This document shows, one piece after another, positions 51,100 to 51,456 of a DNA stretch of 64,000 nucleotides. Position 1 is the stretch's first letter, and the number at the start of each line of letters is the position of its first letter. A program made the translations under genes and the position numbers. This DNA comes from an uncultured Actinomycetota bacterium (GTDB taxonomy: Bacteria; Actinomycetota; Actinomycetes; Streptosporangiales; Streptosporangiaceae): contig CAVRCW010000004.1 in assembly GCA_963719765.1 (NCBI GenBank), positions 52,920 through 116,919 of the forward strand. The letters run 5' to 3'. The notes beneath the pieces are model-generated. The model was not told the origin of the DNA. It made no database searches and was given only the letters and a program-made list of their open reading frames with translations.

Positions 51100-51456
51100 T
51101 CACCTCCCCTCGCCCGAGGAGGAGAGCGCGCCCGCAAGCGCGAGCGGCAGCGCGGTTACCAGCCGTTGGCCGGCTGACTCGAGCGCGACGGCGGTGAGGG
51201 AGTCCGCCAGATCGGGTTCGTGGGAGCTCGCCACGTGCAGCCCGGCAGCGCTGGCGTCGGCGGCGAGCCAGCTCAGATCGAGCTCATCGCGGGCGGCGAG
51301 CAGTACGAGCGTGGGCGAGGCGACCGCGATCTCGGGGAAGGCGACCGCGAATTCCACTGCCGCATGCGCGGCCTGACATGCCTGAGTGCCGGGCGGCAGG
51401 TCGAGGCGGGTGACCAGATAGAGCCTGCCTGGCGTAGAGCCCTAGCGATGCGGCAT
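51100..51456 (-). CDS. PTH2-like (peptidyl-tRNA hydrolase 2 fold) protein; the full-length frame contains an in-frame TAG at codon 5
   Basis: Frame reads ATG CCG CAT CGC TAG GGC..., giving MPHR*GSTPGRLYLVTRLDLPPGTQACQAAHAAVEFAVAFPE...LTAVALE... It aligns by eye to archaeal Pth2 (VVVIRNDLGMGKGK..AQ..HA ... LTAVAIGP). There is no ATG/GTG/TTG between the TAG (51442-51444) and the conserved LYLV start. The listed ORF (GTG 51357) would delete the conserved N-terminal third. Confidence 0.5.

Follow-up and report, generated by a model that had tools for sequence, protein, structure and literature searches.

An in-frame TAG conserved at codon 5 of a PTH2-like gene suggests an amber gate read by a co-encoded tRNA(CUA) in actinobacteria

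The stretch analysed here, hereafter the window, comprises 64,000 nucleotides (nt) from an uncultured Actinomycetota bacterium of the family Streptosporangiaceae (contig CAVRCW010000004.1, positions 52,920 to 116,919), and it carries on its minus strand a gene for a PTH2-like (peptidyl-tRNA hydrolase-like) protein, open reading frame 1 (ORF1), whose fifth codon is an in-frame TAG. The TAG recurs at the same codon in 120 actinobacterial loci, and ORF1 is followed there, almost without exception where the contig is long enough, by a gene for a small basic protein (ORF2) and by a tRNA with the anticodon CUA. Comparison of these loci indicates that the TAG is programmed rather than the product of damage, and that the PTH2-like protein is probably made only while the tRNA(CUA) is active. 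We consider it likely that, through such an amber gate, the hydrolase is synthesised in step with the activity of a co-transcribed suppressor tRNA. The explanation as a whole, combining a three-gene cassette, a leaderless mRNA and a tRNA-decoded gate, we also favour, with slightly more reserve. The features of the cassette are as follows.

51463-51468, minus strand: -10-like hexamer TACCAT, 6 nt upstream of the ATG, which predicts a leaderless transcript beginning at the ATG
51100-51456, minus strand: ORF1, PTH2-like, 118 codons including the TAG, with its TGA stop at 51100-51102
51454-51456, minus strand: ATG start of ORF1, probably the 5' end of the mRNA
51445-51453, minus strand: codons 2-4, CCG CAT CGC (Pro-His-Arg), a conserved short leader peptide
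51442-51444, minus strand: in-frame TAG, codon 5, the proposed site of amber readthrough, at the same position in 120 loci
51103-51109, minus strand: Shine-Dalgarno sequence GGGGAGG for ORF2, inside the last ORF1 codons; GGAGGTGA followed by ATG is kept in orthologues
50795-51094, minus strand: ORF2, a 99-residue basic, all-helical protein, the most conserved protein of the cassette
50752-50788, minus strand: GC-rich hairpin (GGGTCCTGGTGG...CCACCAGGACCC), after the stop of ORF2 and before the tRNA
50621-50694, minus strand: tRNA with anticodon CUA (50660-50662), anticodon loop CUCUAAA and encoded CCA (ARAGORN; Rfam tRNA RF00005, 52 bits)

Re-translation of the window agreed with the sequence-only reading, which had placed the ATG at 51454-51456, the TAG at 51442-51444 and a gap free of start codons before a conserved LYLV strand. 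The minus-strand translation ending at TGA 51100-51102 runs ...RDMPHR-stop-GSTPGRLYLVTRLDLPPGTQACQAAHAAVEF...SSSGEGR-stop. ORF1 thus opens with ATG CCG CAT CGC TAG and continues for 113 codons of a PTH2-type protein, and the six codons from the TAG to LYLV (GGC TCT ACG CCA GGC AGG) include no ATG, GTG or TTG. If the TAG is decoded, the product would have 118 residues. The upstream sigma-factor gene ends with a TAG at 51489-51491, and the distance from that stop to the ATG, earlier given as 33 nt, measured 32 nt. GTG 51357 had rightly been named as the next canonical start; it opens the 85-residue ORF that was called publicly (P0001), a form without the LYLVTR strand and the Q-A-x-Q-A-x-H-A motif. 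Public gene callers cut ORF1 to 85, 68 or about 105 residues at arbitrary downstream GTG, TTG or ATG codons, and the resulting starts in database proteins (P0001, P0018, P0019, P0014 and others) vary, for example LPPATQ..., VTRADL... and MLLAVRDEL.... This truncation is a systematic annotation error caused by the in-frame TAG. In a word-indexed protein search, ORF1 found 27 homologues as against 1007 for ORF2.

To compare leaders, each orthologous locus was translated from 60 nt upstream. In genomes and soil metagenomes, (ATG/GTG)-N9-TAG in frame with ORF1 was present in 120 actinobacterial loci with 97 unique leaders; the pool drew on the window, 46 genome loci, two gene-call loci and 74 metagenome loci, the last coming from a JGI metagenome scan that added 80 loci, 76 of them informative, of which these 74 have the identical arrangement. 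The taxa bearing the TAG include Nocardia, Actinomadura, Dactylosporangium, Asanoa, Virgisporangium, Actinophytocola and Trebonia, as well as many metagenome-assembled genomes of Streptosporangiaceae and Micromonosporaceae. Essentially all actinobacterial copies open with (M/V)-(P/S/T)-(H/Y)-(R/...)-TAG. Among the 97 unique leaders the start codon, ATG in 83 and GTG in 14, stands always exactly four codons before the TAG; codon 2 is CCG (53), CCA (20), TCG (10) or ACG (7), codon 3 is CAC (51) or CAT (32), and codon 4 is CGC (32), CGT (30), CGG (7) or one of several others. Codons 2-4 thus change synonymously and now and then non-synonymously, and the synonymous changes would indicate that the amino acids, or the tRNAs that read these codons, are under selection. 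The base following the TAG is G in 87 of these leaders, C in seven, A in three and T in none. A U at this position (+4U) lowers stop-codon readthrough, and the absence of T would fit this effect (PMC5289835).

The sequence downstream of the TAG behaves as coding sequence in the same frame. The spacer from the TAG to LYLV takes ten lengths (0, 2, 3, 4, 5, 6, 8, 11, 16 and 21 codons), every one of them in frame, and the 120 loci therefore join a conserved TAG to same-frame coding constraint downstream, as is expected of recoding. The full pattern TANNNT-N6-RTG-N9-TAG occurs once in the window, where 0.04 occurrences are expected. The earlier proposal that ORF1 starts at the ATG before the TAG is supported by the position of the TAG at exactly codon 5 throughout these orthologues. 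A normal start just before LYLV, for which an alignment of orthologues had been suggested, is not typical of them, since an in-frame ATG, GTG or TTG follows the TAG in only five of the 97 unique leaders. The rare CTG start that had been raised as an alternative is also unlikely, because the first Leu codon of LYLV varies among orthologues (CTC, CTT, CTG, TTG) and no CTG is conserved. RNAalifold predicted no conserved RNA structure at the TAG in 25 leaders, so readthrough would have to depend on the tRNA and the local context alone.

The sole orthologue with a sense codon at the gate is L103, on a soil metagenome contig (Ga0187807_1067480, about 340-400), which reads ATG CCG CAT CGC AAG GGT...; it has Lys (AAG) at this position, and the contig stops short of the place where the tRNA would be expected. 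AAG in L103, like the CAG that alternates with TAG in ORF2 of Nocardia (see below), is a single-base neighbour of TAG, and these replacements therefore give no identity for the inserted residue. P0005 and P0012 were considered as orthologues without the TAG and were rejected, as their called starts fall downstream of the usual leader.

The tRNA(CUA) is the sole tRNA that ARAGORN and Rfam found in the window, and it is co-oriented with ORF1. Of the 52 genome loci, 47 have a same-strand tRNA(CUA) downstream, 35-260 nt after ORF2; the five loci without it are two short contigs, two degraded copies and one betaproteobacterial relative, in which TAG and tRNA(CUA) are both absent. It is likewise present in 63 of the 64 metagenome loci that are long enough to show it, the exception being a borderline contig. 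The earlier suspicion that the neighbouring tRNA is relevant to the TAG, is thereby supported, the proposed co-occurrence check having come out positive in all sufficiently long actinobacterial loci but that one contig. In an alignment of 38 of these tRNAs, 99.6% of the cloverleaf cells pair and ten of the 21 pairs show compensatory double changes, which none of 500 shuffles reached, while partners slid out of register paired at 40-49%. The anticodon loop CUCUAAA is found in 36 of the 38 sequences and is a 7-nt loop with U33, as in canonical elongator tRNAs; CUCUAAA is also the loop of efficient Escherichia coli amber suppressors such as supF. Judged from these alignments, the tRNA(CUA) appears to be a working tRNA. 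The label tRNA-Pyl that ARAGORN gave to the window tRNA derives from the anticodon alone. The window copy has TTCAATT in its T loop instead of TTCGA(T/C)T, and between the hairpin and the 5' end of the tRNA (50695-50751, minus strand) it has about 40 bases more than close relatives such as L001 and L003.

ORF2 was found by tblastn in 47 of the 52 genome loci with 65-89% identity and a typical length of about 95 residues. All of its 1007 homologues are annotated as hypothetical, and none has a Pfam domain. ORF2 gave no significant E-value against Pfam and NCBIfam and an insignificant match only against PHROG. The AlphaFold2 model of ORF2 reached a mean predicted local distance difference test score (pLDDT) of 83, with helices at residues 2-26, 30-71, 74-84 and 87-97, and a Foldseek search with it returned no structural neighbour. 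Neither ORF1 nor ORF2 matched the PADLOC defence models at E<=1, and tblastn of both against GenBank phages and PLSDB plasmids gave no match. The Shine-Dalgarno sequence of ORF2 is embedded in the codons for the ORF1 C-terminus, which explains why 'GEEVRT' is conserved there.

When the neighbours in the window were compared with all loci by tblastn, ORF1 and ORF2 were the only proteins that travel together, and clustering of the flanking ORFs found nothing besides the cassette conserved across genera. The sigma-factor, XRE, epimerase and DinB neighbours are common only to the closest relative, L009. A functional link to the upstream extracytoplasmic function (ECF) sigma factor was accordingly rejected, the sigma/XRE/DinB company being seen with L009 only. 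Nearly every orthologous locus has an equivalent hairpin 5-20 nt before the tRNA, and a -10 box ahead of the tRNA is very rare among these loci. Since the hairpin is kept and the tRNA almost never has a -10 box of its own, the tRNA seems to be cut out of the ORF1-ORF2 transcript, on which the hairpin may act as a 3' stabiliser or attenuator. Degraded copies of the cassette were also seen, namely a second copy in Asanoa ishikariensis (L049:4001-4565), L037 and L052, with the ORF1 leader lost or frameshifted; in L049 ORF2 is still recognisable and the tRNA(CUA) is absent, and in L037 a TGA shortens ORF1, with ORF2 and the tRNA still in place. The cassette is therefore able to duplicate and to decay.

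Upstream of the start codon, a TANNNT hexamer ends 6 nt (52 leaders) or 7 nt (42 leaders) before it in 94 of the 97 unique leaders. TANNNT placed 6-8 nt before the start is the standard layout of leaderless actinobacterial mRNAs in mycobacterial transcription-start maps. A scan of 50500-51700 for consensus sigma-70 promoters and terminators found nothing and no full -35/-10 pair, and the -10-only promoter was recognised through comparison alone. No Shine-Dalgarno sequence for ORF1 was seen, neither in the four-codon upstream stretch nor between the TAG and LYLV. From this layout, the ORF1 mRNA would be leaderless, with the AUG of M-P-H-R-UAG as its first codon.

To place ORF1 among known families, orthologues were gathered from the 52 genome loci and a 47-sequence alignment was built. 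ORF1 of the window matched Pfam PF01981 with E=0.013 (16.1 bits, below the cut-off of 23) when searched alone, and 38 of the 47 orthologues matched it individually at E<0.01, the best at 8.4e-13. The top six matches of the family profile in the PDB were all Pth2 structures: 1wn2 (6.8e-8), 1q7s/Bit1 (1.6e-7), 2zv3 (2.2e-7), 1rzw (2e-6), 24bt (8.7e-5) and 1rlk (1.3e-4). The similarity to Pth2 that had first been noticed by eye was recovered, for the family as a whole, by the Pfam and profile searches advised at the time. With these profiles homology of ORF1 to Pth2 can be taken as established, identical chemistry cannot. ORF1 resembles Pth2 (PF01981; 1wn2, 1q7s Bit1, 2zv3, 1rzw) in its length of about 115 residues, in profile homology over the whole of it, in the motifs hydrophobic strand-R-x-D-L and A-Q-x-x-H-A, and in an acidic residue preceding a T-A-hydrophobic-A-hydrophobic strand. 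It differs in that the loop after E-P-D-L is four residues shorter, and in that the gene is bacterial, tied to one special tRNA gene and interrupted by a proposed programmed TAG.

Invariant residues of the 47-sequence alignment, numbered from the residue after the TAG, are H26, E75-P76-D77 and L82-T83-A84. In Pth2 of Sulfolobus and human, the catalytic residues are the Lys of the GKGK loop, the His of AQxxHA and the Asp of DAG, and H26 aligns with this His. The AlphaFold2 model of ORF1, made from a 25-sequence alignment, was weak (pLDDT 66, predicted template-modelling score 0.45, first strand missing), and Foldseek of this model against the PDB gave nothing at E<0.001, with Pth2 2zv3 at rank 9 (E=1.6). 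Considering that the model is too weak for a fold search, the fold membership of ORF1 rests on the sequence profiles. For a Pth2 homologue such as ORF1, the most likely activity would be cleavage of the ester linkage in peptidyl- or aminoacyl-tRNA. The ORF1-type subfamily of PTH2 comprises 2678 clusters at E<=1e-3 among 1.84 billion representatives.

We then compared the use of TAG as a stop inside and outside the cassette. None of 201 unique ORF1 and ORF2 sequences ends with TAG (TGA 183, TAA 18), and TAG ends 77 of 234 flanking ORFs supported by the GC content at third codon positions (GC3) and 11 of 29 well-supported ORFs of the window, including the upstream sigma gene. Because about a third of the neighbouring genes end in TAG, it is still a normal stop in cassette-bearing genomes; the suppressor's own operon, by contrast, avoids it at the ends of its genes. 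Scanned by GC3, the 64-kb window and about 370 kb of flanks showed no other convincing TAG-interrupted gene. Within the cassette, six Nocardia loci have an in-frame TAG also in ORF2 (L024, L027, L029, L034, L036 and L048), at codon 8 in five of them and at codon 5 in L036. Sister loci (L019, L020, L033, L043, L051) have Gln at this site, and the strongly conserved remainder of ORF2 follows the Nocardia TAG in frame. In these six species both cassette proteins would depend on the suppressor.

Relatives of ORF1 also occur in phages. Searched with the family profile, IMG/VR yielded 35 viral contigs with 30-58% identity and a GC content of 0.28-0.69, and every one of the 35 has tRNA genes in its 3-kb flanks, mostly within a few hundred bases of the PTH2-like gene. 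Where the phage gene adjoins a tRNA(CUA), it has an in-frame TAG in nine of 11 cases, as against one of 24 without such a tRNA (Fisher p=7e-6). Eight of the phage TAGs come right after the start (M-TAG, MT-TAG in three, MTPT-TAG in two, MTHY-TAG, and one with a 12-codon leader), and several of these genes show TTGACA-N17-TANNNT-N6/7-ATG, a leaderless layout. A recoding test on the phages, in which ORF coverage was computed with each stop read as sense, gave no discrimination in GC-rich DNA. The PTH2-like genes already recorded in the tRNA arrays of jumbo phages and cluster C mycobacteriophages are similar, being of the same family and adjoining phage tRNA genes, and a role in ribosome rescue and recycling of peptidyl-tRNA has been proposed for phage PTH2; the available portions of these two papers do not report a pairing with an amber suppressor, an early TAG, a leaderless layout or a cassette with ORF2 (Iyer et al. 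2021, PMC7824862; Morgado and Vicente 2018, PMC5966550).

Outside actinobacteria and phages, two metagenome-assembled genomes of Myxococcota (L046:4001-4397 and L047:569-976) have a PTH2-like gene followed directly by a tRNA(CUA) with a different and more canonical body, and no ORF2. By eye, the L047 tRNA looks similar to E. coli tRNA-Trp in its T arm and variable loop. A basic helical ORF lies upstream of the Myxococcota PTH2-like gene with overlapping stop and start; kinship of ORF2 with it was considered and rejected, as hhalign found none. Since phage and Myxococcota loci pair a PTH2-like gene with tRNA(CUA), the partnership of this PTH2 subfamily with amber suppressor tRNAs would be older and broader than the actinobacterial cassette, and the gate would be a recurrent addition to it. 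Because the pairing is found on unrelated tRNA scaffolds, the link of the hydrolase would be to UAG decoding as such and not to one tRNA body.

The mechanism that we propose runs as follows. ORF1, ORF2 and the tRNA would form a self-contained three-gene cassette transcribed from the -10-only promoter. With release factor 1 (RF1) alone, translation would stop after four codons (fMet-Pro-His-Arg) and no PTH2-like protein would be made, and in the presence of charged tRNA(CUA) the UAG at codon 5 would be decoded to give the full 118-residue protein. The tRNA would probably be cut by RNase P from the 3' end of the cassette transcript. The amount of hydrolase would then follow the current level of amber suppression, with the UAG serving as gate or sensor. 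We infer the leaderless start, the co-transcription and the decoding by the cassette's own tRNA from the comparison of loci.

Several observations weigh against this gate. Kinship among the loci means that the counts overstate their independence. An efficient suppressor should harm genomes in which TAG ends about a third of the genes. The tRNA body is atypical, with A or G8 for U8, a 7-nt D loop and a discriminator base of A or G, and blastn against annotated phage tRNAs gave only weak partial matches to tRNA-Lys, tRNA-Trp and tRNA-Arg. The window tRNA moreover has a C31-A39 mismatch that its orthologues do not have; like the extra bases and the changed T loop described above, it may reflect mild relaxation of the window copy or variation of the lineage. 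In ORF1, the position of the Pth2 catalytic Lys is variable (T/A/I/D/V), and the DAG Asp of Pth2 aligns with the invariant Glu of E-P-D-L (E75), the invariant D77 being next but one. With Lys not kept and Asp replaced by Glu, the chemistry of ORF1 may differ from that of Pth2. Two phage loci and the Myxococcota loci pair a PTH2-like gene with tRNA(CUA) and have no TAG, so the gate is not obligatory. Finally, simple gating leaves the fixed codon-5 position of the TAG and the conserved Pro-His-Arg unaccounted for; the nascent peptide or the tRNA-Arg in the P site may influence the competition between RF1 and the suppressor, and the leader may also have a minigene-like drop-off component.

In a different reading, which we regard as unlikely, MPHR would be a separate leaderless four-codon mini-ORF ending at UAG and the same ribosome would re-initiate ORF1 at a non-canonical codon, the tRNA(CUA) only modulating this or serving other targets. 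The mini-ORF could then be a minigene of the lambda bar type whose peptidyl-tRNA drop-off senses peptidyl-tRNA hydrolase capacity. A stop fixed at codon 5 is within the range of short peptidyl-tRNA drop-off in minigenes; Pro-His-Arg is kept at the amino-acid level, the downstream gene is a peptidyl-tRNA-hydrolase homologue, and the phage locus L160 shows a bare AUG-UAG start-stop. However, the stretch from the TAG to LYLV is free of ATG, GTG and TTG in 92 of the 97 leaders, no Shine-Dalgarno sequence was seen in it, and the first Leu codon varies. An uncoupled mini-ORF would need no frame, yet all ten spacer lengths keep it. The mini-ORF also leaves unexplained the near-obligatory tRNA(CUA), the ORF2 TAG of the six Nocardia species and the TAG-free stops of the cassette.

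It is much less probable that the tRNA(CUA) inserts a non-canonical, pyrrolysine-like amino acid and that ORF1 and ORF2 belong to that machinery. In its favour are the anticodon, from which the ARAGORN label comes, the atypical body of the cassette tRNA with no U8 and a short D loop, and an ORF2 that has no known relatives. The hallmarks of tRNAPyl are a 6-bp anticodon stem, a variable loop of 3 nt, a single base linking acceptor and D stems, and the lack of G18G19 and of T-psi-C. The cassette tRNA has none of them: its anticodon stem is 5 bp long, its variable loop 4-5 nt, the acceptor-D linker two bases, the D loop contains GG and the T loop reads TTCGA. In every genus the surroundings of the cassette are without a conserved synthetase or biosynthetic gene, no PYLIS-like structure was seen, and the TAG position tolerates Lys (L103) and the ORF2 site Gln. 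The pyrrolysine system is thus comparable in that a dedicated tRNA(CUA), encoded beside genes with in-frame UAG, decodes UAG, and it is different in its type of tRNA, its pylS/pylBCD neighbours and its PYLIS element.

We give very little credence to the view that the real protein is the 85-residue ORF from GTG 51357 and that the sequence upstream is an untranslated leader that happens to stay open. It agrees with the public gene call P0001 and with the many database homologues that are similarly truncated, but the called truncations are not the same at each locus, as is typical of gene-caller artefacts. The short form would also drop two elements that align with Pth2 structures, namely the LYLVTR strand and the invariant Q-A-x-Q-A-x-H-A, and GTG 51357 is a Val/Ile/Leu/Phe position and not a start codon in most orthologues. 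A genome-wide reassignment of TAG to an amino acid, with the TAG of ORF1 an ordinary sense codon, is more improbable still: it would suit the dedicated tRNA(CUA) and the avoidance of TAG as cassette stop, but not the 11 of 29 window ORFs, the sigma gene included, and the 77 of 234 flanking ORFs that end in TAG, nor the lack of any other convincing in-frame TAG in the 64-kb window or the flanks of about 370 kb. A pseudogene through a lost start or a nonsense mutation, or a chance ATG-N9-TAG, both raised by the sequence-only reading, can be dismissed almost entirely, for although ATG-N9-TAG alone arises easily at random and L049, L052 and L037 are clearly degraded, the codon-5 TAG recurs in the 97 unique leaders and 120 loci of many genera with synonymous variation and an intact downstream ORF under purifying selection, and the full pattern is expected only 0.04 times per window.

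If the amber gate holds, the purpose of coupling the hydrolase to suppression may be sought in two directions. One tentative possibility is negative feedback, in which the hydrolase would deacylate or hydrolyse the charged or peptidyl form of the suppressor and so restrain it; a genome with TAG at the end of about a third of its genes could then tolerate the suppressor. The other, which we put forward with similarly low confidence, is a feed-forward safeguard in which the hydrolase would recycle the peptidyl-tRNAs that arise from readthrough into 3' regions, which would agree with the part in ribosome rescue that has been suggested for phage PTH2 (PMC7824862). A bolder and rather doubtful reading takes the cassette as a self-governing, switchable code change on the chromosome of standard-code bacteria: the suppressor could lengthen the C-termini of about one protein in three, the suppression-licensed hydrolase would keep it in check, and some signal would release it, and the same logic would handle the code switch of TAG-recoded phages. 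In a sub-variant of it, the inserted residue or the substrate of the enzyme would be non-standard.

The design of the gate, as predicted, would combine programmed readthrough by a dedicated tRNA with a prfB-like, stop-sensing autoregulation of a translation factor. The gene prfB, for release factor 2, has likewise an early in-frame stop (UGA), and its own synthesis reports the efficiency of stop reading. In prfB the frame shifts by +1, an internal Shine-Dalgarno sequence takes part and the release factor is what is sensed, whereas ORF1 would stay in the zero frame, with four codons upstream and no Shine-Dalgarno or stimulatory element, and its decoder would be a dedicated suppressor tRNA. Phages recoded at TAG (code 15) resemble the cassette in having a compact or mobile genome with its own tRNA(CUA) and genes with in-frame TAG, and the phage relatives of ORF1 probably belong among them; in contrast, the actinobacterial hosts use TAG as a common stop and in-frame TAG is seen only in the cassette genes. 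In Streptomyces, the bldA tRNA-Leu(UAA) reads the rare sense codon UUA and has many targets in development and antibiotic production. It is alike in that, in an actinobacterium, one specialised tRNA gates genes carrying its rare codon, and unlike in that the cassette codon is a stop and the only known targets are the operon partners of the tRNA.

PTH2-like genes in phage tRNA arrays and suppressor tRNAs in TAG-recoded phages are already known. Our literature search found no amber-gated PTH2-like gene, no pairing of such a gene with a suppressor tRNA and no such chromosomal cassette in actinobacteria, with full-text coverage being incomplete and a prior description possible. Natural nonsense-suppressor tRNAs are considered rare and costly in bacteria with the standard code, and in the present case such a tRNA is kept in many actinomycete genera from soil and clinic (Nocardia, Actinomadura, Dactylosporangium, Asanoa and Streptosporangiaceae). 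If the gate is true, its built-in circuit would explain how the suppressor is tolerated, and it would be a new case of a translation factor sensing the state of stop-codon decoding, with the logic of prfB and a different mechanism. It would also offer a lead on the role of the phage PTH2-like genes and on the control of the code switch in TAG-recoded phages, and natural amber-suppression parts (promoter, leader, tRNA and a possible governor) for genetic code expansion in actinomycetes. The annotation is corrected with respect to the ORF1 truncations and the 'Pyl' label of the tRNA, and the cassette makes the physiological use of regulated stop-codon readthrough in bacteria an experimental question. 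A regulated code switch, if confirmed, could make it more than a combination of known kinds.

Some further observations were made at the phage loci and beside the cassette. In the phage loci (L135-L169), the tRNAs lie about 0-600 nt from the PTH2-like gene, and those loci that have no tRNA(CUA) adjoin other odd tRNAs. Eleven have a 'tRNA-Ile(AAU)' with the common anticodon loop (G/C)UAAUGA and four a 'tRNA-Phe(AAA)' with the loop GUAAAGA; among the others are tRNAs whose anticodon loop has 6 nt, Tyr(AUA), Leu(AAG) and, in L164, an ochre suppressor (UUA). This PTH2 subfamily seems to partner non-standard tRNAs in general. The sole 'viral' contig with ORF2 is IMGVR_UViG_3300010396_000001 (L136:2868-3600; 160 kb, GC 0.69), in which the order is tRNA(CUA), leaderless MTHY-TAG ORF1 and ORF2; it may be a link between phage and chromosome or an actinobacterial contig misclassified as viral. 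In the window, the gene for an XRE-family helix-turn-helix (HTH) regulator that adjoins the tRNA (49395-50620, plus strand) looks frameshifted. Its N-terminal HTH_31 ORF enters an out-of-frame tail rich in Arg, Cys and Trp after about 50200, and the likely true C-terminus is in another frame, at 50399-50620. Both parts match the orthologue in L009, and the XRE regulator of the window is either a pseudogene or the result of an assembly error.

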